Source: a virus. Taken from it: 64,000 bases of DNA. The notes beneath the pieces were generated by a model, which worked only from the letters and a program-made list of their open reading frames with translations, was not told the DNA's origin and made no database searches. The position numbers and the translations under genes were made by a program. Each line of letters starts with the position of its first letter. Positions within the stretch are counted from its first letter, which is position 1. The stretch spans positions 1 to 64,000 of IMG/VR virus record IMGVR_UViG_3300018424_005577, one strand, 5' to 3'. This document shows positions 27,749 to 62,654 of the stretch, piece after piece.

Positions 27749-27756
27749 TATTTATC
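27749..27756 (-). promoter_or_regulatory. Late promoter variant GATAAATA
   Basis: Overlaps the stop codon of the giant gene, 17 nt before ATG 27731. Confidence 0.6.
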
Positions 27757-36700: not shown

Positions 36701-39700
36701 GCCAGCCACTTCTACAACTTGACCTATTAAAGGAATAACGTTTGCTTCTGGTACAAATAGTATCACATCTATTTTTTCTTGAATAGTATGATCGCCTGAA
36801 ATAAAAGAGCTATCTAATCCAGGAATATCTCCCTGGAACGGCTCTACTGCTTCTAATTCATCTTGTATCTGATCCTGATATGCATAACTTAAAGTATTCC
36901 ATTTTAGTTTTAATGTATCTCCGATACCTGAACCTTGATACATATCTAACGGAGCTCTTACAATTATATGATCAACTTCTGTGCCAGTAAATGGATAGTT
37001 ACCTGTCATTAACGTAGGTGTATTTTCGCTGTCTGAAGCAGTAAGGTTTAGTTCTGTTCTAATACGTGCAATAGATTCAAAACTTCCAAATACAATATTG
37101 TCAACTGCACCTAAAATGTCTGTAGTAGCTTGCCATAAACTGTCTTGGTACCTTACAATGTCTCTATCTGAGTAATTAGAAGACTCAACAAAATTATCTT
37201 TAAACAATGTTGTTACATTAGACGCATCAGGGGAACCAATTACTAAGTATCTGCCGTCTGTAGATACCGCAAGTGCGGCACCAAATCGTTGGCCATTATC
37301 TGCTACACTATTATCAGCATCTAAAATCTGTGATACTTTCCAAGTACCTACAGAACCTGCTCTAGTATAAACAAATACTTTACCGTTGTTTGAATCAGGT
37401 GCTCCGATTACAAGTACAGTGTTAGCTTTATTGACTGCTAGTGCTACTCCAAAGTTGGCGTCTTCACCTGCTGTTTCATTTACTAATATTTGTTTTTCTT
37501 GGAATGCATCTGTTCTATCTAAAACCAGCCATTCTTCTTTAGCATCTTTATCTATCCAAAGTCTATTAATTGTTTCTTTATTTTGTTGTAATAATTTATT
37601 TGCTGTATCTATATCGTCTACCCTAGAATCAACAAATTTAATAATTCTACCATTAAGATTTTCAGTTTCTGTTGCTGATGCAAGACCTGTATCATCAAGT
37701 ACTTCAATAGCTGTTCCCGATACAGAGCTAACTTTGTAAAAACTTGCAATTCCGTCTATGTTATAAACGCCTATAATATCATCTTTGGATATATCATCTA
37801 TTCTTGTAGTATCTAGTATTAGTTTGCCACTCGATCCCAATTGTTCTATACTAGTAATATTATAATCTGTACGTAGAGCAGTATAAACATTCCAGATTAA
37901 ATTATCATTGCCTATCCAGAATTTGTCACCTTCTCTAATATTTGCAAATGTTAAAGATAACAAACTATTATACTGATTTAGAACAAATTCTACATCTTCT
38001 GAATTTACATAACCAGAATTTTTTGTGTATGTTTTAGTAACATACTTTTCAGGAAATGGTGCATGATTATAATTTTGCGGACGCAAATATGTTTCAAATG
38101 GCTGTATTCTGTAAACTAAATCAGTTTCTAATCCAGTGATTCTATCTACTAGTTCAAAACTTTGCGGACTTAGGCGCATTTTACTTTCGTCTAATTTATA
38201 CTCAACTTCTTCAAATCCGTCGGCTGCGCCATACTGGCCGCATTTGATTGCCCATTCTTCATAAAATTCTAAACTATCTTTGTCTGCACTGCTTAATACA
38301 TTAAACAATTTATCTAAGGCATTCTGTGTGCCTTTATCTTGTATCATTCCCTGATAAAACTTATACTGACTTACATCATCATTAATAATATTTGCTAGGT
38401 AGTCTCTATTTTGATATCCTATCAAATGCTGTGCAAATTTTTGCTGTTCTATATCAAAATTATCTGTGTCTAAATCATAAAAATCTGCAAATTGATTAAC
38501 CTTGTATTCAAAGTTTGGAATAAGTTTCATCTCTGGGTCTTCTGACAGACGTACCCATTGATTAGCATCAAATACATTATTACCCGGAACCTTATTTCTT
38601 GCAGTGTAGAAAAACTCTTTATACTTAACAAGGTCACCTATAGCATAATCTTTCCATTGTTCCCATTCGGTAACTCTTGCATTATCAAAAATAAAACCTG
38701 GAACATTTAAACTACCGTCCCAGTCTGTAGTTCTATAACCTAGTACTTTAATTCTTTCTTGTCTATAGCCTGGTTCTTGATCATAAATTATATCTCCAAA
38801 CACTGTTTTGTTGTCTATTAAAACTACATGTTCTTTTTGAACAAGAGATAATCTAATTCCAAATATACCATCAGCAGTAGCCTTAGGCTTAATTACAAAT
38901 TCGTTTGGATTCTCTCTCGTTAGTCTAGCATTCTGCGGTTCTAACTTTTTGCCATCAGCTTTAAATAAACTGTATCCATAAAAAGTATCGTAAATATCAT
39001 CTACTATAGAATACTCTGAATTAAATTTAATTTGAAATGCGCCCGGGCTTAGGGTAATAACACTGCCTGCTCCCCAATTTTGTGTTGTCCAGAACATAAA
39101 TTCTTTGGAGCTAGTTTGCCAGTCTGCAATAAAACCATTTTCTTCGTCAAAATAATCAAAAACAAAGCCCTGACTTTCTAAATATTTTCCGTATCCTAAC
39201 AAAAAGTCAACAACCTGTTGTATAGTTGTGTAAACTGTTCCGTAAGAAACTTTTTCAGGAATTGTTGAGAATGTTCTCCTAAATACTGCTTGACGACCAC
39301 CTACAACTGGTAGTTCTGGAATTTTTGCAAATTTTGTACTATCAAATTCAGTTGTGCTAGTATGTGTTGTTGTTACACGATAATAATTATTTTCAAATTC
39401 TACAATAGATCCTGCACTATATAATTTATTAGAATCCCATAATATAAATGTTTGACTTACGCCGCCCACATTAATAACAGGATCACTTTCTATTTCAAAC
39501 GGTCTATAATATGTAAAATAAGGTTGTTGTACATTGTAGCCTTTTACAACAAAACCGTAACTTTGTTTTTCTATGATTACACCGCTATAGGTTATATTTT
39601 TTATAGGACTACTTGTGTTTAAAAATATTTTGTAATTTTCTTCAGGTACAAAAACATTTCCTTCGTTTAAAGGAGTTCTACTATCTAGCAATAATTTAAA

Positions 39701-42700
39701 TTTGTCTTTAGAAGTATATCCTCCTAATTTAAATCCTATAAAGTTTGAAATATTTTTTAAATTATTTTTATACGAATCATATGTTACAGTAACATCAGAA
39801 GATAGATAATCAAAAACATAATTAACAAATCCACTTGTATAAACTCGTTGTGTATCCTTTATAGTATTTGGAAAAACAATATTAGATAGTTTTAATTGAA
39901 CATTAGGATTATCATAGATAATGTCATCTACTAATCCTCTTTTTTGACGAAGTCTGTCCCATGCTACACTCATTGACCTATTAGGCTGGTTAACAAATAT
40001 AGACGCAACTAAAGCAAATGGATATTCTGAGCTATTTCTCCATGTAGTCTCTACAGGACTATGGTCGCCATATACAAAGTTAAAATCAAGGTCAGTTGTA
40101 ATAAACTCTTTGACATAACCGCTGTATACAGGACTTACCAACTCGCCATTTTCGTCTACAGGCAAATGATCTAATAAATCCGGACGTTTGTATTTTTCAT
40201 TAACTGTATACGAACCTTGTGCGTTTCTAACTATACCGTTTTGAATATCTTCCCATAACAGGAAATTATTACTTGTATAAGGTGCTTCTCCGTACTGTTC
40301 GTCCCACCAAGTAGGTTTGATAGTAAAGCCTTGCATTTCCCAAGGATGAGTATGCGGACGGTCTGTATCATAGGCCCATTTATAAATTCCGCGCCACCAA
40401 CCGCTAATTGCATTACCGCTTGGATCTAACATTCCTTTATGGTTAAATGTAAAAGAGTTTTCCCTAATATAGTTTATATTGTCTGTGTAATCGTTATCTA
40501 CAAGTTGCAACCATTGAACAAAATCACTTAACATTGTGTCATCTAACTGCTTTTTAGTAACACCTGTATTTCTATATTCGCTAGGCACATAGTCGCTAAT
40601 ATCAAACAGATCCTTGTCATATTCAACTTTAAGGTTATTGTAAATTCTTCTTTCGAACTCAAGAATTAACTCATCTCTAAAATCGCCATAAGTTTTTATA
40701 ATACTTCCGTCATGGCCTTGAATTACTTCAGTAGGTTCTAAATATCTATCGTCAATAAATTTAGTAGGAATATACTTAGGATATAACCCTAATTTTGTTG
40801 GAGTAGCAGGACAGAAAGATCCGTTAGTTGATTCATATTCATAAATTTCTATGACATCGCCGATTTGCTTTATAGTTGTAATAATAGCAAAACCTTCGCT
40901 GTTAAAAGTATAATCAACGCCGTGTACTAATTGAATGCCGTTTTGATATATCTGCACAGCTTTATCGCTTGCATTTTCTAAACTAAATGGATAAGTCAAT
41001 GCAAAAAATTGGAGATCGATGTCATTTATTTCAAATACATTACGAGTCGATGCTCCTGTAGGAATCATGTCTGTAAAATAAAACGGCATTGTATTTGTTT
41101 TATCTTTAAGCATTTCACGTAAGATTAAATCTACGTGTGTTTTAACTGGTCCGTCAAAACCTAGTTCTTCGGCTTTTTTTATAAATGTTCTTTTATATTT
41201 TCCGTATTCTCTTCGAGCATATTTTATAGCCTTTACTAAATTAGATTCTTTGTCTAGTAAATGATATAATGCTAAGTTCATTGGTGCAGAATGTTTTACA
41301 ATTCTTTTACCATATTTTGTAATATCTGTAATATCACGTAAATTACTTACTCCGGGAAATAAACCATCAAAATTATCTGCTTCTTCTACGATAGACCTTA
41401 CATGGTCATTAACTTCGCCTAGTGTAAATTCAGTTATGTTTTCGTTTAAAGGATTTCTTTCAAAATTATTTGCTATTTCGTAGTAACCGTTTTCATTTTT
41501 TACAGCAGAACTACGTGTTTTTATTTTAATAACATCGCCATAATTAGGTGCTACTGTAAAATTAATTACAGATTGATTTTCGTTATTTGTTGTAAGAGTA
41601 TAATCTATATTAGGTTGTTGAATTTGATTATTAACAAAAACTCTAATCCATAAATCTTCTAATAATGCACTTTCATCATATACATCAATAGGATATGATA
41701 TTCTTGTATTATCTACATCATACTGTCTAATAACATTTTGACTACTTAAAGTGTCTGCTTTTTTCCAACCGTTTACATACTCAAAGTCAGAAAGCCCGTT
41801 ATACTTTCTTAAATAACCTATACCGGACAACGTTGTACTATAAGATTCATCGACATATGCAATGCCATCTGAAAGTAAGTCAAAGTTAAAAACTAAATCA
41901 CCTACGTTCTGTATGCTTCTATAAGATAAAGGAAATCCTAATTCTGTATCATTTGTGCCGCTGCCAACTTTATATGAAAAAAGTTTTGTTCCGGTAAAGT
42001 CTTGCGATTCGTAATAATTAGTATCTCCTAAACTGTTACCATTTACATCATAAATGTCAAATAAAGGCGACTGGTTAATTGTTGTTTTGTCTTGAGCTAG
42101 TTGCCAACGTGTTCCGTTGTAAAACAACATTTTACCTTTGTAAACTTCTCCATTTTTACAAAGAACAACTTCATTTTCGATTGGAGCAGAATCTTCAACT
42201 TCTAAAAGCGCAATTTGTCTAGAATTTCCAAACAATATAAAACTTACTTCGTAAATTCTACCATTTACCCTTTCATCAGTATCTGCGGTAAACATAACTC
42301 GCATACCGTTGGCTAAATCTACTCCGTCAACATTGTAACCTTCAGATCCTTCTATAGTACTAAAAACATCAATTGTAAAATCATCAACTAAGTCGATGTT
42401 ACTTTTAACTTGTGTTCCAAAATTAAATAATTTTAAATTAGATTCAAACTCTATAATTGGTCTTACTGCTCTTTTTGTTTGATCTATATTAGCAGGTATA
42501 CCATTTATACTTGCAGATTTTTCAATAATGCTTTTATGGAACCATCTATTATATTTTGACCAAAGGTTACCATCTTTACTACCGCGGTTAATTGTAATAT
42601 AATCTTTGTTGACAGGATAACCAATTGCTTCAGAATATGGCAAGTTGTCAAATCCGTCATTGTCAAAACTTACTTCAAGGTCAGTAGTAAAAGAACTAGG

Positions 42701-43858
42701 TACATTTAATTCTACTTCAGAAATAAGAACAATTTTGTCACCTACACCTTCTACATACCAATTTCCTGTATTATATTTTTCAGGTATTACAGTTCCTTGG
42801 AAAGAAAGTTTCATACCATTTGATATTTCTATACCACTATTAGTAGTATATGTCTTCTTTCCTAATATTTCTGTACCTACATCTAATGAAGATGCTTCGT
42901 CAATATCGTAAATTCTTATTAAATTTCCTGCATTTACATCAGTGTCTGCAACATAGTAAATTTCATTAGGAGTGCCGTTGTCGGGAGTAAACTCGATTAC
43001 TCCTTTTTCTACTCCATTATCACTAACTTCCCTAGTTAAATTAAATGTAGTATCTATTTCCCACTTACTTGCATCATCGGTAAACTCTTTAGATGCTCTA
43101 AAGTCTTGTAACGATTTATAAATTGTATTTTGATAAAAAACTCTTTCGCCAATAGAATACAAAGTTTCTGGCACCCAAGCTGGAGCATTTTCTCTTTTTG
43201 ATCTTAGTGAAAACGGCAATCCTGGTGTGTCTATTTCAAATCTATAAGTAACACCTCTGTACAAAGTTAGTTGAGGATTTTGTGTAATACCGTCAGGAGA
43301 TAAAATATATGCAAAATTATCTGTGTTGTCTATAGATCTTACAGTGTATGTGCTTACAACTAGATCGCTTACACCAGATACTGTGATTGCTTGAGGACCG
43401 TCTGGCAGCCAATAATATTCACGAAAGTTTACAAATTTATCCCAATTGATATGAGGATTCCATGCATAGTATTCTTGTCTATTTAAAATGCTATGGTCAT
43501 CTACTGTGCCGTCTAAGTTTTTAATTTGATTAATGTAATCATTATAGTCTCTATAAAAATTAACATTACCTAAATCGTCTTTAATTACTGCCGCTGGCTC
43601 AAGTTGATAATTTTCTCTTTGTTGATTTACATCGCCGATATAAAAATCATCTATAGCATGACCCGGAGAACTTTTTCTTCCGACATAGCCATTTAGTTTT
43701 TCTGCAACACCGGGTTGTATAAGTTGATCAAGTGTGCTAGATAAAAACTTGTTGTTAACTTCAGACCTAAAGTAACGGGGCAGATGCTGAGAACTTTTTC
43801 TGCGTTGTTTTCCATCGCCTGGCAACGGAAGCTCATTTTGATCTTTATTATAAGCCAT
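27752..43858 (-). CDS. Giant 5368-aa baseplate wedge/adhesin-like virion protein (gp7 position)
   Basis: Uninterrupted ORF coupled to gp6; contains CBM5/12-like repeats, FG-GAP-like blades, GxGY...GGGGxGA repeats and GDGxT Ig-like repeats. Confidence 0.75.
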   Translation of the reverse strand: MAYNKDQNELPLPGDGKQRRKSSQHLPRYFRSEVNNKFLSSTLDQLIQPGVAEKLNGYVGRKSSPGHAIDDFYIGDVNQQRENYQLEPAAVIKDDLGNVNFYRDYNDYINQIKNLDGTVDDHSILNRQEYYAWNPHINWDKFVNFREYYWLPDGPQAITVSGVSDLVVSTYTVRSIDNTDNFAYILSPDGITQNPQLTLYRGVTYRFEIDTPGLPFSLRSKRENAPAWVPETLYSIGERVFYQNTIYKSLQDFRASKEFTDDASKWEIDTTFNLTREVSDNGVEKGVIEFTPDNGTPNEIYYVADTDVNAGNLIRIYDIDEASSLDVGTEILGKKTYTTNSGIEISNGMKLSFQGTVIPEKYNTGNWYVEGVGDKIVLISEVELNVPSSFTTDLEVSFDNDGFDNLPYSEAIGYPVNKDYITINRGSKDGNLWSKYNRWFHKSIIEKSASINGIPANIDQTKRAVRPIIEFESNLKLFNFGTQVKSNIDLVDDFTIDVFSTIEGSEGYNVDGVDLANGMRVMFTADTDERVNGRIYEVSFILFGNSRQIALLEVEDSAPIENEVVLCKNGEVYKGKMLFYNGTRWQLAQDKTTINQSPLFDIYDVNGNSLGDTNYYESQDFTGTKLFSYKVGSGTNDTELGFPLSYRSIQNVGDLVFNFDLLSDGIAYVDESYSTTLSGIGYLRKYNGLSDFEYVNGWKKADTLSSQNVIRQYDVDNTRISYPIDVYDESALLEDLWIRVFVNNQIQQPNIDYTLTTNNENQSVINFTVAPNYGDVIKIKTRSSAVKNENGYYEIANNFERNPLNENITEFTLGEVNDHVRSIVEEADNFDGLFPGVSNLRDITDITKYGKRIVKHSAPMNLALYHLLDKESNLVKAIKYARREYGKYKRTFIKKAEELGFDGPVKTHVDLILREMLKDKTNTMPFYFTDMIPTGASTRNVFEINDIDLQFFALTYPFSLENASDKAVQIYQNGIQLVHGVDYTFNSEGFAIITTIKQIGDVIEIYEYESTNGSFCPATPTKLGLYPKYIPTKFIDDRYLEPTEVIQGHDGSIIKTYGDFRDELILEFERRIYNNLKVEYDKDLFDISDYVPSEYRNTGVTKKQLDDTMLSDFVQWLQLVDNDYTDNINYIRENSFTFNHKGMLDPSGNAISGWWRGIYKWAYDTDRPHTHPWEMQGFTIKPTWWDEQYGEAPYTSNNFLLWEDIQNGIVRNAQGSYTVNEKYKRPDLLDHLPVDENGELVSPVYSGYVKEFITTDLDFNFVYGDHSPVETTWRNSSEYPFALVASIFVNQPNRSMSVAWDRLRQKRGLVDDIIYDNPNVQLKLSNIVFPNTIKDTQRVYTSGFVNYVFDYLSSDVTVTYDSYKNNLKNISNFIGFKLGGYTSKDKFKLLLDSRTPLNEGNVFVPEENYKIFLNTSSPIKNITYSGVIIEKQSYGFVVKGYNVQQPYFTYYRPFEIESDPVINVGGVSQTFILWDSNKLYSAGSIVEFENNYYRVTTTHTSTTEFDSTKFAKIPELPVVGGRQAVFRRTFSTIPEKVSYGTVYTTIQQVVDFLLGYGKYLESQGFVFDYFDEENGFIADWQTSSKEFMFWTTQNWGAGSVITLSPGAFQIKFNSEYSIVDDIYDTFYGYSLFKADGKKLEPQNARLTRENPNEFVIKPKATADGIFGIRLSLVQKEHVVLIDNKTVFGDIIYDQEPGYRQERIKVLGYRTTDWDGSLNVPGFIFDNARVTEWEQWKDYAIGDLVKYKEFFYTARNKVPGNNVFDANQWVRLSEDPEMKLIPNFEYKVNQFADFYDLDTDNFDIEQQKFAQHLIGYQNRDYLANIINDDVSQYKFYQGMIQDKGTQNALDKLFNVLSSADKDSLEFYEEWAIKCGQYGAADGFEEVEYKLDESKMRLSPQSFELVDRITGLETDLVYRIQPFETYLRPQNYNHAPFPEKYVTKTYTKNSGYVNSEDVEFVLNQYNSLLSLTFANIREGDKFWIGNDNLIWNVYTALRTDYNITSIEQLGSSGKLILDTTRIDDISKDDIIGVYNIDGIASFYKVSSVSGTAIEVLDDTGLASATETENLNGRIIKFVDSRVDDIDTANKLLQQNKETINRLWIDKDAKEEWLVLDRTDAFQEKQILVNETAGEDANFGVALAVNKANTVLVIGAPDSNNGKVFVYTRAGSVGTWKVSQILDADNSVADNGQRFGAALAVSTDGRYLVIGSPDASNVTTLFKDNFVESSNYSDRDIVRYQDSLWQATTDILGAVDNIVFGSFESIARIRTELNLTASDSENTPTLMTGNYPFTGTEVDHIIVRAPLDMYQGSGIGDTLKLKWNTLSYAYQDQIQDELEAVEPFQGDIPGLDSSFISGDHTIQEKIDVILFVPEANVIPLIGQVVEVAGGFGTVSYTFNPSTEQDATANTTIYLKDVNGSFGTAGSLTTTIGEFVGEYETVAPIDEVIGYDEYWGGYWKINLPANVNVDQINSDTGRGLVYFDIVPNGEADPNRFYYNILDYRADEVLANNPFYSDDDIYTRIANLSYYGAPGPLNVTDDFASNIFVVKAPDELTNNLNVVAPGDDDNDTIDLFYNSLPQFEDGVWQPLTNYVSGTVLKYATSAYDTIYWRVKTAHTSPEEFLDNNDQFNSLFYEPLDGLIFKDPSDIGLAIETLNKTHKVYDIYDGFIDVELTIPNPLDQNLFKEPKVGLTIRDTVNGGTAEIAFYQKFNGQDTRLYLKNVSGTWAAGQKYGDNRSVEYLSSTDPADAGTEYDLPPKNDGSPGSAEFGQIRTRSFSLPQAGIGKLIAIDAGFPLPVTEQQVLVNVTGQNVSDGAQGPEYWFSREGDVFGIPRTANAPAENNNDWTEVFNLPVVAGGTSSGLEKEGMYTVFERRGTGLYNKLGAFAIPDRSNYNKLGHQLKMSKSGDLYKLFVKSLGSYPQNDKPNNLVYDDSKGRIYIINNGVNDDYSFGWEFSRDKQYRGQYQNTRTYFENDIVYYDGNLYESVTNMAPGLFDISNWTLLETNKDYLGYIPNDTGLLIGDDISTVLDQDLLAEFAESFDVSENGEVLVVSVKYEDSKDNSLVVYRNDGGSFVRYQKIPAPSKTTEYGSTISISADGRIIAVGAPFNDDKGVDFGKVYIYKQVNGIFELSQELYSPAEDKAELFGYKVDFDGNNLVVGCRNGDSFVQDTFDSNTTTFDNDLTKIRSYDNNSGVIRVYERIDDSLIYGQMIDFDDSSTILFGSNIKVSNNHIYAGMPLVEYSANTAGTVVDFYKQKDIWSVLRQSKPTVDVNKIKRVMLYNTSDNEIIQYLDYVDVLQGKIPGPAEQELSYKTYYDPATYTVGTGVNVDTTNSWGEIQVGKLWWDLTTAKFINPYQSDVIFSANNWNKKYSNTNSINVYEWVKSTVLPEEWDKQAGTERGASKGISGKSKYGNNAYVTKQVYDKASKTFTTYYYFWVGQKTTVPNIEDRTLSANSIAQLIEDPAGQGYRFVSFISPTQFALFNCESLIRGNEVAISVQYWTIEDQDINIHNQYQIISDGLETSKPNRDIEQKWFDSLIGWDLADRPVPAPELSIKERYGILNRPRQTWFVNRVEALKEVVNRINSVLLDNLIVDDKNLNRLTEKEAEPSVASRLFDTTVDTVTELQFVGVSKANQASLTPVVENGEIVRVEINQPGRGYLQAPTVEVFGTGQNAVIETVIDSNGKITDTNIINAGENYNSSNTSISVRRFTVLVKSDSTVNGRWALYERDTTTDEWIRVASQSYDVNQYWQYVDWYEDGYSQFTEINQSIDFAYELQGLDNEIGDIVKIQSVGTGGWLLLEKIDNQTGVDYTINYQTVGRQNGTIQLSDTLYDVSKNLVGYDTTTFDTLTFDGQPSVELRIVLEAIRDDIFVDDLALEYNKLFFSSLRYVFAEQNYVDWAFKTSFIKAQHNVGELDQKINFQNDNLPSYEKYIKEVKPYKTKIREYLSSYEKIDNSQSMTTDFDLPPLYIEGTDNIITRTVKVIDDNLVSQEGPITTYPDKHWADNAGYSIKEIAVADPGSGYVTTPVVTVTGGGGTGAIAKASLGRGGTITSIQIVTEGSGYLSMPTVSIDGTIADGGRSAKAVAILGGSPVRSMNTVVKFDRVSGEFEFINLSTTENFVATGSKVFFNLLWPMDLRTTKVTVSIDNTEVLAGNYAYKNILDTSKGYDRYYGQIEFIDPPADEAQIKIEYHKDISLLNAQDRINIAYEPTVDQFGKTLGQLMTGVDYGGVEVKSFDFGGISGWDSAPWMSRGWDLYDTTFEDEIIYRKLVEITFPEDINLRSARITQDNTNAQGSASVTGSANVLNVSAQFDQEFDTQSEIRYDDSTLLSTQIVNSTDTNINIDTGINANAIPSSIVNYLELAKPLEDGVTYNIYFKATGSDIAVRLDDPDYEGAPLLNKPDVVMASIVGDGVTTRINLDNINITFGQSDVFYVRKITSDGAFKPDNDSYDALIQGGDLSYQSATGLNSADINIDGDGFVTVTTSQGPEEVVPGQVVDTLDITVFEKSTGGASQIVSRNYRGDGQTVRFNIGDSPVTRDNLFVKIDNIIQEKNTYYIDFNTKDIVFNTAPADNATIFVASIGLSSISIIDIDDFVGDGETVEFLTNSRFEENSEAFVTINGKVVNVQLFKSDDTYELPGNYVIKFAEAPFDTAVIKLLIASKGLINVEYSQVTIDTIVADGSTLQYDLGKAPFTQNPSRAFMLVKVNDRFLNPGYTEQFEVTSNRNYTFDLTQVPVGAVNAYEIELYLNGRQLEYLQEWTYQGAGAFDDTKPEDEQAGSTITLERGVGDPGDKLQAYIITDAEFKLGYYESDNDFIKTPGTIHFNEPFNEDDIITVYQFSNHDSQGIETQKFVVSEKTKLTEGTTAYYEYRRLSRGIIELTTPAEDAQYVWVSVNGNLLTPSIDYSVTLDNRYIKLQQIPQENDVIVVQHFANAKITERFGWRQFKDMLNRTHYKRLETSYELAEDLAWTDKTIKLKDATNIPVPVFNSEYPGVIFIEGERIEYFQVDGNELLQIRRGTLGTGVKDLYLAGTKIIEQGADTNLPYKDETEVVTVEAGGYDIASTIYEDSPGVTVERFYFTSNNNSAFPLGGDPIPSIGYPGQSCVVYGTGFETNVKAIVGETECETTYVNDTELYFKTPALPVGAYDLVIVNPATNVPIDRAQTSVVVPKAIPYLQILLPFAPTPNPASEDQWSELEQTGWYKELVSIPVSQGIPGRGYIIDSKGTTDFTQIGAPNNLSGTEFIIPRDVDTTLLTGTGRLLDFASIPYEYWEAQDIEVFAGGRRLRKTPIAVYDYTAQDSPEGDKNVEAEFAVNKAIGAYVRLTYPPENGTNVTIVRKIGTVWSNPGHRLVDANSDVANFLLSSTTDVPR

Positions 43859-46800
43859 TAGTAACTAAGTCCTCCGGTATTTGATGAGCTAAAAGAACCA
43901 CTTTGTATTCCTGTATTTGTTGTTGTTACTTCTGTAACAATATTACCGCTTGCTTTTAATCTATTTGCTGTTATAGCATCTATAATATCTATGTCTGCAA
44001 CTGTTGCCGCGCTAATAAAAATTTCGTCTGCTTCAGATTTTATTTCATACAATGAACCAAATGATTGATCTTCTTGTACTGGAACAATTACAAATGTAAC
44101 TAAATCCGGAGATAATTCATTCATTACATAACTAGAAAGTTCTGAGAAATAAAACTTATCTCCAAAGTCCCAATTTTCAAGTGCAAAAAATCTGTTTACA
44201 GCACGAATTACATTAGACTTTAGTTCATTATCATTTATAACTAAATCAGGATTTTTAACTATTTTGAATCTAGCTTGCAAATCAGCCTCCGCCTTGTCTC
44301 CAAAAAGCACTTTATACTTAACCGGATGATAAATTACTTCATCGCTAAGTGATTTAATTTTGTTAATTTCAGACCCATAACTTATAAACAAATCATCACT
44401 ACTAGGAGGAAGAGGTTTATCATTTATACTGTCATCTAGATATTGCCTAAACAAAGAGTCGTATCCTCTTGTTAAGAGATAAGTGTCTATTATATTACTT
44501 GCACTAGGATCAATTCTCGAATTTTGATCAGCGGCATGTAGGTATTGGAATTTAAAACCTGCACGGCCAATTTGCGCTTTATATTCACTAGTAACTGTAA
44601 GTTCACTATTATTATTCAAAACTTCAAAAATATCTTCTTCTAGATAGTAGAATGTAGTGCCTGCATCATATTGGCTAATGGCGCCAATAGTAGCTTTCGA
44701 TGTAAAGATTTTTAAGTTTATAGAATCTTTATCTACATAAACAAAGTCATTTACTCCGTCAGTAGTTGTAATCTTTTTAAGAATAACTAGTTTATCAATA
44801 GCATTAGTTTCTTCATCTACAATTTCTGCAAATAAATCAGGGTTGTCAACTACACCATCATCGTCGGAATCAAAGAAACTAACTTGTATTTTTTTGCTAT
44901 CTACATATCCTTCAGCATCTCTATATTCTTCAACTATTTCCCAGTCAAAATCATAATTAAAAGGATACAAGCTATCAGGTTTATTGTTTATGTTTAAGAT
45001 ACTAATTTTATCCTTAATAATTTTTCCGGTTTTATTGTTATAAATTTTATCAGTACTATCGTAATAAAATCTAACCTCTTGATCACTTTCAAAAACATAC
45101 CTCATTGCTCTATAGGTAATTGTATATTTTTCACCATCAGTTTGGAATAGTAACAACCAACTACTATCAAGTTGTTGTCCTGTGCTATCGCCTGTTTTAC
45201 CTGTGCTAAATTCACTCGAGATGTCTAAATTATCTTCAGTTACTATTCGCCATTCGCCATTTACTTGATCATATCTTAAACCAAAAGTTTGATATGCAAA
45301 AATCTGTGTAACTGCCTGGGCTTTTACGTCAGCAGTTAATGCTGTTGGTAATGCTGTACGAATTTCTGTTAATCTTGATCCGGTAGGAATAACATCGTTG
45401 AATACAATAGGACCTGTGCCGTCTTCTAATAGCTCAGTACCGTCGTCGCTTACGCTAACAACTTTAGTCCATTTGTATGTTGAACCTCCCCTGTAATCTG
45501 GTTCACCATCTACAAGTTCACCGTTTAAAAAATGTTTGCCGGCAGGCGGTTCAAATTTTAACAAACTGTTTAGTTTTACATATTTCATGTTAGAACCAGT
45601 AAATGTTCCAACTTTAACTTTTACAGAATTAGGATTTGTAAGATAACCTGTAACAGAATTAGTATCAGAAGTAATCTGATTCCAGACCGAACCTAAATCA
45701 TCAACAAACAAACGAGGATATTTGTCATAATAATAATTTCTAACTTTTATACTTCCTAATATTGGCTGAATAGTGTTAACAATAGCGCCTTCAATATCAG
45801 TTAATGTATCAAAACTAAATGTTTGTTTTAAGCTAAGATAATCTTTGTAAATTGAACCATCTTTACCGTACAAGTTTGTAGTAGAATATTTGCCTGTTGC
45901 ATCTACTAAATCAAAATATCTGCTTATACCACTAGAGGTTCTGTTAACTGCTTTTGCCTTTACAATTTCTTGACTTGTTGTAAGCGGTCCGATTTGATAA
46001 TCTTCTGCTGTAATTAATCTATTTTGAGTATAATAAGTTGCAGGAGCATTAGCTTTTATGCTTGCATTTGATTCAGATACTGTTGCGTTATCTACAGTAT
46101 ATTTTAATGATAAAGTTAGAGTAATTGTTTCTGCTTTTCCTGCTTTAGATACATATGGTATTCTTATTGAAATTCCTCGCATATCATCAGGGGTTACTAA
46201 TACTCTTTGATTTTTACTAGTTCTATAGTAAACTCTAAAATTACCTTGAGGTAAATTACCAAATACACCGTCTGAGAAGATTAAACTAATTCTATCTTCA
46301 ATTCTTGTCAAGACACTGTATATGTTTCTTTGGTTTCTAGAAAGACTATTATAAATTATGTTGTTACCTTCGACCGAATCAACTTTTGTCCATAACTCTT
46401 GCTCATTACCTAAACTATCTAATTTATAAAGCCAAACATCACTTTGATTAATATTCGTTGCATCAACTGCAACTACTTGGCTAGTACTAGGATTGGTGAC
46501 ATTAAATGTGCCTGTGTCTAATGTACCTTGTCTAAAGTGTACAAAAAATCCTGTGTTTGAACTAGCAGAACCTTGTCCATCATCTCTATATAAAAATGCA
46601 AAGTTGTTTCCTGGAAACGGTGCTTCTTCAACAATTTCTGCATCAGTAATATCAGTAGAAATTATTTCAAAACTAGTGCTTCTACCATCTACTGTTTTTG
46701 TAAAACTATAGGCTGGAACTTCAGTATTTGTACTATTAAATCTATATTGTTGAGTAGGAATATCATTTATTATTCCGCTTTTAACTGGACGGCCGACTGT

Positions 46801-47304
46801 ACCGTTAACTGGTAATGCGGCATTTAATACTCTAGTATATTGCTCAAACCAATCTGGGTTACTTGGGTCATTCCATAGAATAGTTTGATTCTCTAAATTA
46901 ATGTTATTACTGTCTGTTACTTCTTCAGTTGTAGATACTGAATCTATTTTTAGTAGGCCATTTGCACATCTATTTCTTTTAGGATTATACGATAGTAATC
47001 TTGCTAAACGAAGTACGCTCTCACGACGCTCTGCAAGTTCTAAATAGTTTTCACGAGCATTAAGATCAATACGGAAAGCAATGTTTTGACCGAGGTAGGC
47101 AATAAGGTCAATAAGTGCAAGATATTCACTTGATTCTGTGTAGTCATTAAAGTCTTCTGGATAGTTTTCACGCAAGTATGCGATCATTGTACGACGAAGA
47201 TTATCAAAGTCATACGACTTAAAATCTGCGTTTCTAAAAGTTTGGTATACTCGCTTCCAATCTTCTGCAAGTAGTAGTCTATTTTGTCTATCTGTTGACG
47301 ACAT
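43858..47304 (-). CDS. gp6: Baseplate wedge subunit, T4 gp6-like
   Basis: DFDNLR...YL...FNDY.ESS..LIDLIAY...NARENYL..A.RRESV..LA..L.Y.P; FSDGVFG..P; ES..SIK.NAP..Y.TQNR.ITAEDY. Confidence 0.85.
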   Translation of the reverse strand: MSSTDRQNRLLLAEDWKRVYQTFRNADFKSYDFDNLRRTMIAYLRENYPEDFNDYTESSEYLALIDLIAYLGQNIAFRIDLNARENYLELAERRESVLRLARLLSYNPKRNRCANGLLKIDSVSTTEEVTDSNNINLENQTILWNDPSNPDWFEQYTRVLNAALPVNGTVGRPVKSGIINDIPTQQYRFNSTNTEVPAYSFTKTVDGRSTSFEIISTDITDAEIVEEAPFPGNNFAFLYRDDGQGSASSNTGFFVHFRQGTLDTGTFNVTNPSTSQVVAVDATNINQSDVWLYKLDSLGNEQELWTKVDSVEGNNIIYNSLSRNQRNIYSVLTRIEDRISLIFSDGVFGNLPQGNFRVYYRTSKNQRVLVTPDDMRGISIRIPYVSKAGKAETITLTLSLKYTVDNATVSESNASIKANAPATYYTQNRLITAEDYQIGPLTTSQEIVKAKAVNRTSSGISRYFDLVDATGKYSTTNLYGKDGSIYKDYLSLKQTFSFDTLTDIEGAIVNTIQPILGSIKVRNYYYDKYPRLFVDDLGSVWNQITSDTNSVTGYLTNPNSVKVKVGTFTGSNMKYVKLNSLLKFEPPAGKHFLNGELVDGEPDYRGGSTYKWTKVVSVSDDGTELLEDGTGPIVFNDVIPTGSRLTEIRTALPTALTADVKAQAVTQIFAYQTFGLRYDQVNGEWRIVTEDNLDISSEFSTGKTGDSTGQQLDSSWLLLFQTDGEKYTITYRAMRYVFESDQEVRFYYDSTDKIYNNKTGKIIKDKISILNINNKPDSLYPFNYDFDWEIVEEYRDAEGYVDSKKIQVSFFDSDDDGVVDNPDLFAEIVDEETNAIDKLVILKKITTTDGVNDFVYVDKDSINLKIFTSKATIGAISQYDAGTTFYYLEEDIFEVLNNNSELTVTSEYKAQIGRAGFKFQYLHAADQNSRIDPSASNIIDTYLLTRGYDSLFRQYLDDSINDKPLPPSSDDLFISYGSEINKIKSLSDEVIYHPVKYKVLFGDKAEADLQARFKIVKNPDLVINDNELKSNVIRAVNRFFALENWDFGDKFYFSELSSYVMNELSPDLVTFVIVPVQEDQSFGSLYEIKSEADEIFISAATVADIDIIDAITANRLKASGNIVTEVTTTNTGIQSGSFSSSNTGGLSY

Positions 47305-57133: not shown

Positions 57134-57583
57134 ATGCAGTGGACTTACAAAGGCAAAGTAATAGACAAAATACCAGACGAGTATGAAGGCTTTGTATATC
57201 TCATAACCAATCTTAAAACTGGGCAAAAGTACGTAGGCAAGAAACTAGCAAAGTTCAAAACAACAAAACCTCCGCTAAAAGGCAAAAAGAACAAACGCAG
57301 AGGCTACAAAGAATCAGACTGGCGTGACTATTGGGGAAGTTCTGATAGATTAAACGCAGATGTAGCAAAGCTAGGCGAAAAAAACTTCACTAGAGAAATA
57401 CTATACCTATGTAAAGGCAGGGGCGAAATGTCCTATATTGAGGCAAGAGAGCAATTTGACCGCCGTGTATTAGAGACGGATGAGTATTATAATGGAATTA
57501 TTAATGTTAGAGTTGGCGGTTCCGATAAATTGCGCAAGGCTTTGCTAGAACACACCATCAAGGCAAAACAATCCAACACATAA
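57134..57583 (+). CDS. GIY-YIG family nuclease (Seg-like), single domain
   Basis: GFVYLITN...KYVGKK, YWGSS, F.REIL, E, YYN; 149 aa with a basic insert. Confidence 0.8.
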   Translation: MQWTYKGKVIDKIPDEYEGFVYLITNLKTGQKYVGKKLAKFKTTKPPLKGKKNKRRGYKESDWRDYWGSSDRLNADVAKLGEKNFTREILYLCKGRGEMSYIEAREQFDRRVLETDEYYNGIINVRVGGSDKLRKALLEHTIKAKQSNT

Positions 57584-58076: not shown

Positions 58077-59219
58077 ATGAAAGTTTACGATATTGTTTCT
58101 CTTAGAGAAGATGAATTGCCAAACGCTAGTATGAGCGATTTGCGTTCTATGCAGTTTGTTGCTGACAAGCAAATATTACCTGATGGAAAAGTAAGAGTTT
58201 TATTACCAGATGGTCAAATCTTAGATTTTGCCGACGAGGCTGAACTAGAAAGAGAAACACGAAAAGCTAAATCTAGACTAGCAACAAAAATAAGAGGGAT
58301 ACCTAGTTTAACTAAACTTGCATCAAGTGCCGCAAGAGTAAACTGGTGGATACAAATTTCGGAAGCAATATATTCAGCTTACACAGAATTTAGCACAAAT
58401 GGAATTAACGGTAATTACGAAGCAGTAAAAATGGAACTGCTTGAAGTAGGTGTTGCCGCTGGTTTAAGAGTAGTAATAGGAACTGTAAGAACACTGGCTA
58501 AAGGAGCAGGAGCTCTTAAATGGATCAAACGTTTAACTACTGCTAAACGTTCAGCACAAATGGCAACAGCGGCGTTAGGCGCGGCAGGTTTTGCAACAGG
58601 AGGTATAACCTGGGTAGGTGCATTGATTACAGGTGCCGGTTGGATTGCTACGGAAGTTGCGCTATACCTAGCTACAGATTATATAGCCGATATGATCATG
58701 GATGAGTTTTTCAATCCTGAAGAAGTTGAAAAAGAATTAGCAGAACAACTGCAAGATGAATTAAGTTTAATTTTAGGTTTGACTAGAAGTGCTAGACACG
58801 TAGACGCTGACGGTGATGGCGAGCCAGACAATATCAATCCAGAAACTGGCAATGTAGTAGATCCAGAAACTGGTCAGGATTACAAATATGATTTAGGTGA
58901 TTTAACTCCTGATGATATAGAAAGATTACGCAATGCTACTCCAGGTCAAATTAATCAACTAGCCGATGATCCAAGATTTTCTGATGTATTGTCAGACTAT
59001 AGAAATAGGATGGACAGCATAGGCGGTCCTAATTCACGTCGTAGAAGTATAACTGATTTCGAAAGAGAATCAGTGCGTGAAGAATCTGACGAAGGAAAAG
59101 TAGCAGGTACTGAAGAACTACAAGGATTTGTAAACTTCTTAAAAGACAAAGGCTACGACAGAGATTTACGCACTAAAGTTGTAAAAGTTGCACAGCATAC
59201 TATGCGTCAATCAGATTAA
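58077..59219 (+). CDS. Hypothetical late protein with hydrophobic Gly/Ala-rich segments
   Basis: 380 aa; central AALGAAGFATGGITWVGALITGAGWIA, DADGDG motif, acidic C-terminal half. Confidence 0.7.
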   Translation: MKVYDIVSLREDELPNASMSDLRSMQFVADKQILPDGKVRVLLPDGQILDFADEAELERETRKAKSRLATKIRGIPSLTKLASSAARVNWWIQISEAIYSAYTEFSTNGINGNYEAVKMELLEVGVAAGLRVVIGTVRTLAKGAGALKWIKRLTTAKRSAQMATAALGAAGFATGGITWVGALITGAGWIATEVALYLATDYIADMIMDEFFNPEEVEKELAEQLQDELSLILGLTRSARHVDADGDGEPDNINPETGNVVDPETGQDYKYDLGDLTPDDIERLRNATPGQINQLADDPRFSDVLSDYRNRMDSIGGPNSRRRSITDFERESVREESDEGKVAGTEELQGFVNFLKDKGYDRDLRTKVVKVAQHTMRQSD

Positions 59220-59444
59220 CGGCAATCCTGTTTTATTAGTAGTTTCAATATTATCTTTAATAATCTTAGATAGAACATCTCTATCGTCTACACTTATTTT
59301 ATAGAACAAGTCGTCGTAGCTTAGTGCGCCTCTCATATTCCAACCTATTCTATACAATGTATCTTTGAGTTGTTTTATATCGTTTTCGTATTGTACTGAA
59401 AGCTCTTGTATCGCCGAGACGGATAGATTCAAGAGCGTGTTACG
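59211..59444 (-). CDS. C-terminal -1 frame extension of the hub chaperone (gp51-position small ORF)
   Basis: Open -1 frame overlapping the end of 59429..60256 at a T TTT TTC slippery site; no convincing independent start with a Shine-Dalgarno. Confidence 0.65.
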   Translation of the reverse strand, partial: RNTLLNLSVSAIQELSVQYENDIKQLKDTLYRIGWNMRGALSYDDLFYKISVDDRDVLSKIIKDNIETTNKTGLPLI

Positions 59445-60256
59445 AAAAAACTTGAGTAGTCCATGTTTACATTTGTAGTAAACGCATGATCGCATTCTGC
59501 ACAATTTACAGTTTCTAAAGGATTGTTAAATGTTTTTTTAATTTCTTCAACATGTTTTTTTATTTCTCTATAAAACAATGAATCGCTTTGTGCAATGAAA
59601 TCATTTATAGATTTTGGATCAGTTTCTTTTTCGTTTGTAGACTCAATGCTAGAAATATACTCTAACATTATTTCTAATTGAAGTGCTGTAAGCTCTTTCA
59701 TTACTTCAGAAATATGAGCATCTTTTTGTTCTTTGGTCCAGTCTTCGGGCAATCCTACAACCTGTCTTTGGAAAGTATAGTTACGTAAATTATACGCAGT
59801 CATTTGATCATAAGTCATAGGTTCATAATTAAATTTTAGACCCTCTATAACATTAGAATCAGGAAATGTTCTGTTTTGAAATTTTTCGAGATAGGCTTGT
59901 AAATTTAAAGCAAACGAAGATTTAGCCTTACATTCAGGACATGTTACTTCCATATCTAGTGTTTCGCCATATGTAGCTATTCTAATAGCAATTAACGCAA
60001 AGTCTATGTCAATAGTAGGCATTAGTCCTGGTTTTAATATTGTAGGAATACAACTTTGAATAACTTGCTTTGTAGCATCGCCATTAAAAAGTGCATCTGG
60101 TGTTTTAAGTAATATTTCGTCTGCCGCAGTCATTCCGAATACTGGCAGACTTACAGCTTGTCCATCAGCTAAAACCCCGTCGGGATAATAATTAGGAGAC
60201 GGTAGATCAATATATATCTTAGGCTGTCTTTTGTACGATTCAAGAAAACTGCTCAT
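59429..60256 (-). CDS. gp26: Baseplate hub assembly protein, T4 gp26-like
   Basis: IDLPS, MTAADE..L, DIDFALIAIR..TYGE.L...VTCPEC, C-terminal CAEC...SSFF. Confidence 0.75.
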   Translation of the reverse strand: MSSFLESYKRQPKIYIDLPSPNYYPDGVLADGQAVSLPVFGMTAADEILLKTPDALFNGDATKQVIQSCIPTILKPGLMPTIDIDFALIAIRIATYGETLDMEVTCPECKAKSSFALNLQAYLEKFQNRTFPDSNVIEGLKFNYEPMTYDQMTAYNLRNYTFQRQVVGLPEDWTKEQKDAHISEVMKELTALQLEIMLEYISSIESTNEKETDPKSINDFIAQSDSLFYREIKKHVEEIKKTFNNPLETVNCAECDHAFTTNVNMDYSSFFVTRS

Positions 60257-60326: not shown

Positions 60327-62654
60327 TTGGCAGTAAGAATACAAGGTGGTGGTGAACTTGACGGTGCAATACTAGCAGGTGTAGCTACCGAAGATGGTCA
60401 AAACGCAATCAGACAGCTTTTAGGCGGTCTACCTGGTGAATTAGGCAGAACTACCGCAGATAATATCAACGCAGCCAACGATTCTGGCGCTAACATGATC
60501 AGTCGCATGGCGCAAGGTACTATGACCGCTGTTACAGAAACGTTAACAGGAACTGCAAGTACGATTGCAGGAATAAGCGGTAACTTAATCCAAGGTAATT
60601 TTGCTCTTACTGATCAAACTAAAGTATTAAAAGATTCTTTTGGAAATTTAAACACAGGCTCTAATTTTCTAAACGGAGCCTTTGCAACTCTAGCAGGCGG
60701 TGCCGACAATGTAGTAAAATACATTCAAGATTCAGCAGATGCATTTAGGGGAATGAGTGATGCTGGCGGAGGTCTTGAAGGAGATTTAATTACTCTTAGA
60801 GTAGCCGCGGCCCAAACTAGAATGCCTCTAGATGAATTTGCAGGAATGGTAACTGAAAATTCTGCAAAACTTTTAGCATTAGGTGGTAGTGTTGATCAAG
60901 GTACAAGAGCATTTGTAGAACAAAGTAAAGCATTTTATGATAGTAGACTAGGTTTAGGTGTTCAAGCTCTAGGTATAGGATTTGAAGAATCAAATCAATA
61001 TCTAATGGACTATATGGATGCCCAGCGTAGAAATGATACCTATCAAAATATGACTACAAGTCAGAGAAATAAAGCCGCTCAAGATTATATCTACGAATTA
61101 GATACACTAGCAAGACTAACAGGTAAAAGTCGTAAAGAACTTCAAGATGAAGCTAGGCAAAGAATGCGAGCAGGTCAAACTCAAGCCGCTCTAAGGCAGA
61201 TAGAAAAACGCACAGGTCAAGATGTTACTGCGGCTTATCAAACAATGGCTAGAGATATCAACGGAACACTCGGTCCTGGTTTTGCAGATATGTTTGATAG
61301 CATGGTTGCACTAAATGGCGCAATTGACCCAACTAATGAAGCAATGAAAGGGTTGTATGCCGCGGCACCAGAGGCTGCTGAATCTATGAGTCAGGCAGCA
61401 AAATTAATGAACCAAGGTGACATTGAAGGTGCTAATCGAATGATGGAGCAAGCACAGGCTCAAGCACTAGCAAGAATGGATTCTGATGAATACCTAAGTG
61501 TAGCAAGACTGGGCGGACTAGCAGGCGCAGTTGGTACAGCAAGTTCGGATTTACTAGAAGTTAATCAAGACTTTTTAGATGCAATTAAAACTCAAATTGA
61601 TGGTAATAACAGAGCTGGTGCAAGTGCAGAAGAATTTGCAAATGCGTTAAACAGGGCAAGAGAAAATATTGCTACAGCACAAAATAACACGCAAAGCTCT
61701 CCAACTATGGGAGGTGTTGTTGCAACTGAAACAATGATTAGAGATACTGCTAGTGCTTTAGTAACAGAAATTGGCACTCAGTTTAGAACACAAATCGAAG
61801 GTGGAATGTTAGCTGTAAGAGATACAGTATTAAACAGCGAAATCGATCAAACAGTTCAAGATGTTATAAGAGGCGCAGGATCGATTATAGATCCTTCTGG
61901 TGTAGATGGAATAATAAACGGATTACAAAATATTATTAATGATCCTGAAGCAAGCGAGCAATCTAAAGCCAATGCTCAACAATTATCAGAAATACTACAA
62001 GAACAAAGAGCAATACTTGTTGATTTAAATTCTTCACAAGCAGAAAAAGAAGCGGCTCTAGCATCTATCCAAGCAATATCACTAGAAGCACAAAATGATG
62101 TTACAAGAGTTCGCGAAGATATGCAACAAAATGATATTAATTTGGTTAACAGTTTAGTTGAAAGTGTAGGCACTGCTATTACTGATGCATTTAATAGTAT
62201 TTTTGGTAACGGAACTACAATACCAGACGCAGAATTTCCTAACGCACAATTTCCAGAAGGGTCACCTCCTACTCAGATGAACAACGGTACAGTTGGCGAA
62301 TTTGGTAGACTATTTGCTGATTTTGGCGAAGGTACATCAGCAACATTACATAACAACGAAATGGTAGCAAACGAAGCTCAAATGCGAGAAGGTGTAAGAG
62401 AACTTACAAGTAGAATACAAAGTAGAGCAATTACTGCTCGTGCGAATCAACCTGCTCCTAACCAAGATTTTTCAGAAGTTATAAATCAACTTAGAACAAT
62501 GCTTCAAGAATCAGGCAGTCAGGGACAAGAAATGTTAAATACTACACTACAAGAATTAGCTGGCGTAGCACATAGACAGCTTGATGTTCAGTCTAAGAAC
62601 TTACGTGCTTCTAGAAATTTAAGTGGAAATGTGTTTAAAGGCTTAGGATTTTAA
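60327..62654 (+). CDS. Probable tail tape measure protein (TTG start)
   Basis: 775 aa, Ala/Gln/Gly-rich and helical; AGGAG Shine-Dalgarno and late promoter; next to the hub chaperone; C-terminal FGEGT.A.LH.NE.V. Confidence 0.65.
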   Translation: MAVRIQGGGELDGAILAGVATEDGQNAIRQLLGGLPGELGRTTADNINAANDSGANMISRMAQGTMTAVTETLTGTASTIAGISGNLIQGNFALTDQTKVLKDSFGNLNTGSNFLNGAFATLAGGADNVVKYIQDSADAFRGMSDAGGGLEGDLITLRVAAAQTRMPLDEFAGMVTENSAKLLALGGSVDQGTRAFVEQSKAFYDSRLGLGVQALGIGFEESNQYLMDYMDAQRRNDTYQNMTTSQRNKAAQDYIYELDTLARLTGKSRKELQDEARQRMRAGQTQAALRQIEKRTGQDVTAAYQTMARDINGTLGPGFADMFDSMVALNGAIDPTNEAMKGLYAAAPEAAESMSQAAKLMNQGDIEGANRMMEQAQAQALARMDSDEYLSVARLGGLAGAVGTASSDLLEVNQDFLDAIKTQIDGNNRAGASAEEFANALNRARENIATAQNNTQSSPTMGGVVATETMIRDTASALVTEIGTQFRTQIEGGMLAVRDTVLNSEIDQTVQDVIRGAGSIIDPSGVDGIINGLQNIINDPEASEQSKANAQQLSEILQEQRAILVDLNSSQAEKEAALASIQAISLEAQNDVTRVREDMQQNDINLVNSLVESVGTAITDAFNSIFGNGTTIPDAEFPNAQFPEGSPPTQMNNGTVGEFGRLFADFGEGTSATLHNNEMVANEAQMREGVRELTSRIQSRAITARANQPAPNQDFSEVINQLRTMLQESGSQGQEMLNTTLQELAGVAHRQLDVQSKNLRASRNLSGNVFKGLGF

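Follow-up and report, generated by a model that had tools for sequence, protein, structure and literature searches.

Sequence evidence for a probable -1 ribosomal frameshift in a phage gene of the T4 gp26/gp51 family

The -1 frameshift between the tail assembly chaperone genes G and T is among the most conserved viral recoding events, and is described as conserved in long-tailed phages "except T4" (Atkins et al. 2016, PMC5009743). The lambda work on gpG and gpGT (Levin 1993; Xu, Hendrix and Duda 2004) is taken here as summarised in that review. In T4, gp26 and gp51 are listed as hub assembly chaperones, and the hub requires both of them to be assembled; gp51, however, does not occur in the particle (Leiman et al. 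2010, PMC3004832). Here we examine a gene of the gp26/gp51 family located on the minus strand of a 64,000-nucleotide (nt) stretch of viral DNA, positions 1 to 64,000 of IMG/VR record IMGVR_UViG_3300018424_005577, hereafter called the window. Judging from its sequence, this single PF12322 gene very probably yields two proteins, of 275 and 348 amino acids (aa), through a -1 ribosomal slip on the heptamer TTTTTTC.

The gene opens with an ATG at 60256 and closes, on the minus strand, with the codons TCA AGT TTT TTC GTA ACA CGC TCT TGA, so that the stop codon (59431-59429) lies four codons past the heptamer. The coordinates of all features are collected in Table 1. The sequence elements of a canonical -1 frameshift are found in this short stretch: an in-phase X_XXY_YYZ heptamer, a structure 5-9 nt downstream, and an open coding frame in the -1 register. 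The structure is a hairpin whose outer stem of 7 base pairs is formed by GCTCTTG (59436-59430) and CAAGAGC (59408-59402), with an inner TATC/GATA pairing around a 9-nt loop; the UGA of the 0 frame sits within the 5' arm. Its folding energy is -14.7 kcal/mol (z = -3.24), and one out of 200 dinucleotide shuffles was equally stable. In the -1 frame, 79 codons are open and translate as FFRNTLLNLS.... Joining of residues 1-271 of the 0-frame protein to 77 aa of the -1 frame would give a fusion of 348 aa, with the predicted trans-frame junction ...DYSSFFR followed by NTLLNLSVSAIQELSVQYENDIK. AlphaFold2 models the 275-aa protein with a mean predicted local distance difference test (pLDDT) score of 87, and the extension as four helices (pLDDT 82). 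A first-pass annotation of this DNA, made from the letters alone, had placed the heptamer, the spacer, the stem-loop and the stops, and had proposed a 275-aa 0 frame with a 77-aa continuation to a fusion of about 348 aa. All its coordinates were correct when the minus strand was re-read, and translation reproduced the three lengths.

The 275-aa protein matches Pfam family PF12322 ('T4_baseplate') with E = 9.4e-17 and a score of 61.9 bits, where 24.5 is the cut-off; residues 51-271 of the protein align with positions 36-218 of the 219 in the profile. It also matches phrog_150, 'baseplate hub', with E = 5.8e-19. Alignment by hhalign of the gp26-like sequences with the single sequence of T4 gp26 was weak, so that membership of the family is assigned by the Pfam match. 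A search of the whole record, 101,911 bases long, detected one PF12322 gene only, the one at 60256-59429.

The heptamer turned out to be a constant feature of the family. A first set of relatives comprised 37 loci: 35 IMG/VR contigs plus the phages Atu_ph07 and PA5oct. TTTTTTC was present in all of them, in phase, 1-14 codons ahead of a 0-frame stop of variable position, and the length of the -1 open reading frame (ORF) was always 75-79 codons. The same heptamer was detected in the cultured phages GAP32, XbC2, Vibrio phage 2.275.O, ELP-22, RaK2, CBB, Phosso and 7t3, and the 10 cultured jumbo phages sampled all carry it. In 45 further frameshifted IMG/VR loci the sequence was TTTTTTC (43 loci), TTTTTTA (one) or TTTTTCC (one). 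KVP40, S-PM2 and P-SSM2 have TTTTTTC, and pelagiphage HTVC008M has TTTTTTT within a run of eight T. Overall, the heptamer occupies the same codon position in about 100 related loci. Conservation of the heptamer and of the overlap had been set beforehand as a check on the proposal; both are kept in these loci, which belong to two deeply split clades.

The two variant slip sites are found in the loci that we number L073 (heptamer at 4428) and L087 (4792). TTTTTTA is canonical, with Z = A, and TTTTTCC is non-canonical and may be either an error or a site for slippage in the P site only.

Sequence constraint at the heptamer goes beyond the amino acids that it encodes. Among 30 distinct sequences of the first set, entropy was zero at all seven positions, three synonymous sites included. 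The codon that precedes TTT can be AGT, AAT, CAT, GAT, TCT or TAT, with a third base that is always T. In the window, phenylalanine is encoded 793 times by TTT and 140 times by TTC, the rare codon of the two, and 2 of the 25 FF dipeptides in window genes are spelled T_TTT_TTC. As this spelling is rare in the window yet invariant in the 30 distinct sequences and kept in 43 of the 45 further loci, the heptamer reflects more than chance.

A switch of reading phase was also observed in the first set. Entropy by codon position follows the pattern of frame 0 ahead of the heptamer and the pattern of frame -1 from 9 nt past its start, and means of 1.26, 0.89 and 1.50 were obtained for codon positions 1, 2 and 3 of the -1 region. 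The 0-frame residues past FF, which number 1-14, are unconserved. In the -1 peptide, by contrast, F1, F2, R3, L9, I14, W37, R40, G41 and N67 are invariant among 23 sequences. The extension measures 72-79 codons in the clade of the window and 59-65 in KVP40 and the cyanophages. The Met of the internal WNMRG motif is T in loci L027 and L033 and is absent from PA5oct, and the annotated starts of the downstream ORF vary by record (ATG or TTG, at different codons). Since conservation runs from the slip site onward, we conclude that the conserved protein starts at the heptamer and not at the internal Met; the alignment and the codon-phase entropy agree in placing its beginning at the FFR junction. 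The first-pass annotation had also held that the -1 frame has no good start of its own. This is the case for the window and its clade, with the reservation that an ATG is present at the conserved WNMRG motif.

Genes in which body and extension are naturally joined were found as well. A profile of the 79-aa extension alignment, run against 1.84 billion representative proteins, produced 418 matches at E up to 1e-3. The majority are gene-caller fragments of 41-102 aa with inconsistent starts; 20 among the best 150 matches, however, are proteins of 319-351 aa that carry the extension domain at the extreme C-terminus. Six of the in-frame long proteins were scanned, and all had PF12322 at the N-terminus. 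Their junction is xFR, with a single F. At the DNA level, loci L047-L049 contain unbroken ORFs of 340 codons with the junction TCA CAA TTT AGA and no T run. A word-indexed search for longer proteins that hold the extension found none, which reflects its limit of sensitivity as the exhaustive profile search found them, and the in-frame form was not found among the cultured phages in our collection. The sequences of these relatives indicate that the fused architecture is functional in them, where a long protein is actually encoded and made. Absence of a fusion product had been named as a point against the frameshift; natural in-frame fusions of the same architecture do occur.

The environmental in-frame clade is monophyletic and is made of the loci L047-L049 and the proteins P0020, P0022, P0028, P0029, P0037, P0040, P0051 and P0055. 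Its members apparently have no means of making the short form, and nature has in them set up an experiment on whether a phage can do without it.

The existence of in-frame versions in a related clade, together with the error-prone nature of homopolymer runs, makes one consider an artefact: a one-base homopolymer error, or a recent pseudogenising frameshift, might have split an in-frame gene. However, the same arrangement is found in about 100 independently sequenced loci, which include finished genomes of cultured phages and different sequencing platforms. Furthermore, the in-frame forms have another junction, with a single F and no T run, and form one derived clade. Hence, we hold the probability of artefact or decay to be practically nil.

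The RNA downstream of the slip site was examined in 71 distinct loci by folding the 50 nt that begin 3 nt past the heptamer and comparing them with the local background. Structure was below the 5th percentile of the background in 27 of the 71, and energies of -10 kcal/mol or lower were obtained in 37, with a mean z of -1.2. The stems differ among loci, being unrelated in sequence and slightly shifted in register. The stimulatory hairpin is therefore recurrent yet evolutionarily labile.

Two of our observations weigh against a ribosomal frameshift, and each of them suits a different explanation of the locus. One is that KVP40 and the cyanophages have a -1-frame ATG that is separated from the 0-frame stop by a few codons at most (beside it in KVP40, S-PM2 and P-SSM2). 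Starts of this kind would serve two separate genes, in which the -1 ORF is translated alone by coupled re-initiation or from an internal start, and the heptamer just encodes FF. GenBank records do annotate small ORFs of 40-76 aa at the -1 ORF, and gene callers predict many short forms of it. However, the annotated starts differ between phages; the window has no start near the junction, and HTVC008M has no in-frame start there either. The conserved peptide begins upstream of every proposed start, from FFR. The need to encode FF also leaves unexplained the frozen wobble T that precedes FF and the fixed TTT-TTC order, which runs against codon usage. In addition, a tail joined to a PF12322 body is functional, as seen from the in-frame fusions and from T4 gp51. 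Two independent genes are thus very improbable. Coupled re-initiation in KVP40 and the cyanophages may nevertheless make a separate small protein, as databases annotate, and could coexist with the frameshift.

The other observation is that about half of the 71 distinct loci are without unusually stable downstream structure. This lack of a strong hairpin favors transcriptional slippage, whereby RNA polymerase would add an extra U in the U6 run and the mRNA would encode the same SSFFR... fusion. The site is indeed a homopolymer (six T, and eight in HTVC008M), and the protein product would be identical. However, prokaryotic transcriptional slippage sites usually need runs of at least 8-9, and six is short. 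In nearly all loci the run has a fixed length of six and C comes next, with no drift to longer runs. The hairpins, in turn, are strongly enriched 3-8 nt downstream (the 27 loci below the 5th percentile), as befits a ribosomal stimulator. We therefore give transcriptional slippage a small chance only. It may be added that lambda G/GT also functions without a strong stimulator.

A -1 ribosomal slip could operate as follows. Most ribosomes would read AGT TTT TTC and four codons more, and would stop at UGA to release the 275-aa protein, which would end just past the conserved FF as T4 gp26 does. Some ribosomes would pause at the hairpin 7 nt downstream while U_UUU_UUC is occupied by two phenylalanine transfer RNAs, one in the P site and one in the A site. 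The two would then re-pair one base back, on UUU UUU, and decoding would resume at CGU to give ...SSFF-RNTLL... and the 348-aa protein. That ribosomes slip here, at whatever rate, is what we infer; the sequences themselves show the signal, its conservation, the switch of phase, the homology to gp26 and gp51, and the tree. The extra helical tail of 77 aa would be the counterpart of the C-terminal tail of T4 gp51. In this manner, a single gene would supply a short and a long protein at a fixed ratio, a pair for which the T-even phages would use two paralogues, 26 and 51. In the nested environmental clade, the pair would have been cut down to the in-frame long form only.

The relationship with T4 can be traced in both proteins of the pair. 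T4 gp26 (208 aa) matches PF12322 over residues 1-206 (E = 8.8e-64), and gp51 (249 aa) over residues 1-201 (E = 3.9e-52). Past residue 201, gp51 continues in frame for 48 further residues, ...DVFKLLVNPDEIF.... The terminus of gp26 is ...KEFFELL, encoded by GAG TTC TTT GAG TTA CTA TAA; there is no slip site, and gene 25 begins at the stop. Hence gp26 stops a few residues past F(F), as the 0-frame product does, and gp51 runs in frame into a tail to which the -1 extension of the window appears to be homologous.

Homology of the tail was examined with profiles. A hidden Markov model (HMM) of four -1 ORFs, from KVP40, cyanophages and a pelagiphage, was compared with 230 ORFs from six T-even-type loci (Z = 1e5). 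Every match at E < 1 was to gp51 and involved its last 50 residues or so, with E values from 1.2e-6 to 0.055; gp51 of phage Berthold reached E = 4 only. Using hhalign, the profile of KVP40/cyanophage-type -1 ORFs aligned with six gp51 tails from the FR junction (96.4% probability, E = 1.4e-9). The extension of the window and jumbo phages aligned with gp51 tails plus KVP40/cyanophage -1 ORFs over columns 41-69, that is, 28 columns (74% probability, E = 2.7e-5). Two other comparisons were negative: hhalign of the 23-sequence extension alignment with the whole of T4 gp51 gave a misplaced match of low probability, and no significant BLASTP match to T4 gp51 was obtained with the small ORF of KVP40. 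For hhalign, it took an alignment of gp51 tails on the other side to succeed. These sequence comparisons make a strong case for homology of the -1 ORF to the gp51 tail in the KVP40/cyanophage clade, and a moderate one for the extension in the clade of the window. The first-pass annotation had read the locus as a gp26/gp51 pair, and this reading gains from the presence of PF12322 in both T4 proteins and from the match of the -1 ORF to the C-terminal tail of gp51.

The putative frameshift genes come from T4-like cyanophages, pelagiphages, KVP40 and jumbo phages of the RaK2/GAP32/PA5oct type. KVP40 and the T4-like cyanophages have the same gene pair, heptamer and relative frame as the window, under the names 'gp26' and a small 'gp51 baseplate hub assembly catalyst'. 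In their records, however, the two ORFs are presented as independent genes with no ribosomal slippage marked, even though the KVP40 record itself remarks that the small ORF resembles the C-terminus of T4 gp51. The extension of the window is longer (77 aa) than those of KVP40 and the cyanophages (about 57-63 aa), and the similarity between them is detected at the profile level only. In jumbo-phage records, the -1 ORF is either unannotated or 'hypothetical'. None of the GenBank and RefSeq records that we examined marks slippage at gp26 and the -1 ORF.

A tree of 41 PF12322 bodies, built with IQ-TREE, divides into two major clades, both supported at 100/100. One of them includes the gp26 and gp51 proteins of the T-even phages, joined in a single clade (94/97) that is sister to the KVP40 frameshift gene (85/80), and the frameshift genes of cyanophages and pelagiphages branch outside the T-even/KVP40 group. 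The second major clade consists of jumbo-phage and environmental genes, the window gene among them. There, the in-frame fusions make up one clade (95/98), nested among frameshift genes and placed beside the subclade of the window. As frameshift genes stand on both sides of the deepest split, the frameshift is ancestral by parsimony. On balance, we lean slightly towards a history in which the frameshift is ancestral in PF12322 and the T-even phages have substituted for it a duplication, with 26 as the short copy and 51 as the long one, the pair being the T4-lineage counterpart of lambda G/GT, a chaperone of tape measure and hub for which the ratio of short to long protein is important. T4 differs from the window in having two genes without a slip site instead of one gene with a putative -1 frameshift. 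The window proteins are larger (275 and 348 aa) and distantly similar to those of T4, and it is the T4 pair that the tree depicts as a derived duplication.

As a separate observation on gene layout, Cronobacter phage GAP161 (locus L110, 1201-2494) has its genes 51 and 26 on the same strand, one following the other, and both come after gp48 and gp54. In T4, genes 26 and 51 are divergent. The tandem layout of GAP161 is what a recent duplication would leave.

As to function, the odds are a shade better than even that the short and long proteins act as a chaperone pair in the manner of lambda G/GT. The likeness to lambda lies in a tail-morphogenesis gene with an X_XXY_YYZ heptamer close to its stop codon, a few codons away, at which a -1 slip would lengthen the protein at the C-terminus; the short and long products would have their N-terminal body in common. 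The gene order of KVP40 and S-PM2 is also that of lambda, V-G-T-H: a tube-like gene (PF23849 in S-PM2), gp26, the -1 ORF, and a large ORF of 656 or 1167 aa. Furthermore, 'tape measure protein assembly chaperone' is the name given by specialists to gp26, gp51 and gp28 in the GenBank record of Berthold. If the proteins worked like G and GT, the PF12322 body common to both would bind the tape measure or a hub protein during initiation of the hub and tube, and the long form would use its tail to reach a second partner.

Several facts, however, speak against a chaperone of the G/GT kind. The PF12322 body of the window protein is about twice as long as gpG. The G/GT gene order (tube, pair and tape measure on one strand) is not found in the window, where the gene lies on the minus strand, is divergent from the 775-aa candidate tape measure, and has no tube gene adjacent. 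Searches with Pfam, Foldseek and VIA-align detected no sequence or fold similarity to lambda G/T or to other chaperone families. Fold searches of the Protein Data Bank (PDB), with Foldseek for the extension and with Foldseek and VIA-align (wide) for the body, returned a generic helical hairpin only, with Z below 8. The match of the extension to a 'tail assembly chaperone' PHROG was not significant (E = 0.19). Finally, the gp26-like homologue of CBB (L096, 1378-2235) is annotated as 'structural protein'.

Lambda G and GT are absent from virions. The CBB label, if it comes from mass spectrometry of virions, would be in conflict with a purely non-structural chaperone. The PA5oct homologue is not flagged as detected by mass spectrometry, while its neighbours are. 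Another side observation concerns S-PM2, in which a 1167-aa ORF (L107, 3357-6860) follows gp26 and the -1 ORF, at the position expected for a tape measure. Its domains are ADP-ribosyltransferase-like (PF01129, E = 1.3e-5) and phage tail lysozyme (PF18013, E = 7e-25).

Full-text literature searching, which covers papers outside subscription-only access, found no report of a gp26/gp51 frameshift. Tail-chaperone frameshifting is a known kind of event; what would be new is its presence in a different protein family and its replacement by duplication in T4. For fifty years, genes 26 and 51 of T4 have been known as essential to hub assembly, yet the mechanism by which they act has stayed obscure. 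If our interpretation is true, T4 would cease to be an exception and become a case in which gene duplication replaced recoding. The gp26/gp51 pair would gain a testable model, with the shared body engaging one partner, the tail a second one, and stoichiometry set by the slip rate. The 'catalytic' role of gp51, long without explanation, would for the first time become approachable in terms of mechanism. In practical terms, hundreds of phage genomes would need re-annotation, including those of jumbo phages that are therapeutic candidates and of abundant marine cyanophages. Their small 'gp51' or 'hypothetical' ORFs would be the 3' part of a trans-frame protein.

Table 1. Location of the frameshift gene, its putative recoding elements and the flanking ORFs in the window
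Feature	Position	Strand	Description
0-frame gene	59429..60256	minus	275-aa PF12322 (T4 gp26/gp51 family) protein; short product, proposed T4 gp26 equivalent
Slippery heptamer T_TTT_TTC	59450-59444	minus	X_XXY_YYZ; 0-frame phase AGT TTT TTC
Spacer GTAACAC	59443-59437	minus	7 nt, slip site to hairpin; from sequence
Downstream hairpin	59436-59402	minus	Probable frameshift stimulator; from folding
-1 frame	59211..59450	minus	FF + 77-aa extension; stop 59213-59211; predicted long product, proposed T4 gp51 equivalent
775-aa ORF	60327..62654	plus	Candidate tape measure, followed by gp20-like portal gene; divergent from frameshift gene
380-aa ORF	58077-59219	plus	No family; converges on frameshift gene

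The record that contains the window is a viral contig of 101,911 bases. As CheckV estimates that this length amounts to 28% of a complete genome, the record is a jumbo-phage fragment. Genes near the frameshift gene encode gp46/47-like nuclease subunits, a gp55-like sigma factor and a SegE-like GIY-YIG endonuclease. The same region contains a baseplate operon with gp5-, gp25- and gp6-like genes, and a gp20-like portal gene.

The first-pass annotation had described the neighbour of the frameshift gene as the tape measure. In BLASTP searches, the 775-aa protein matched the virion structural protein gp244 of GAP32 (E = 4e-8), a structural protein of PA5oct detected by mass spectrometry (E = 4e-5) and T4 gp29 (E = 0.016). 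Language-model features matched it to tape-measure clusters with a score of 0.91. The RaK2 counterpart, matched by position and not by sequence, carries the annotation 'similar to ... tail tape measure protein'. No sequence match was found in Pfam, PHROG or PDB, and hhalign to T4 gp29 came out empty. PF25671, the T4 tape measure model, has no match in KVP40, the cyanophages or RaK2 either, and is too T4-specific to decide. What stands of the earlier description is a weak similarity to the GAP32 virion structural protein; identity as a tape measure is plausible, and the ORF is best considered a candidate.

On the other side of the frameshift gene, the 380-aa ORF shares 9 nt with the end of the -1 ORF (59211-59219). 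Its only matches, one to a VTT membrane domain (E = 0.027) and one to a tape-measure PHROG (E = 0.078), are not significant. Between this ORF and the gp46-like gene lies the SegE-like gene (57134-57583, plus strand), a stand-alone GIY-YIG homing endonuclease that matches PF19835 with E = 1.1e-34. Finally, the tail/baseplate region of the window contains a single ORF of 5368 aa (27752-43858, minus strand), located downstream of the gp6-like baseplate wedge gene, which encodes 1148 aa (43858-47304).

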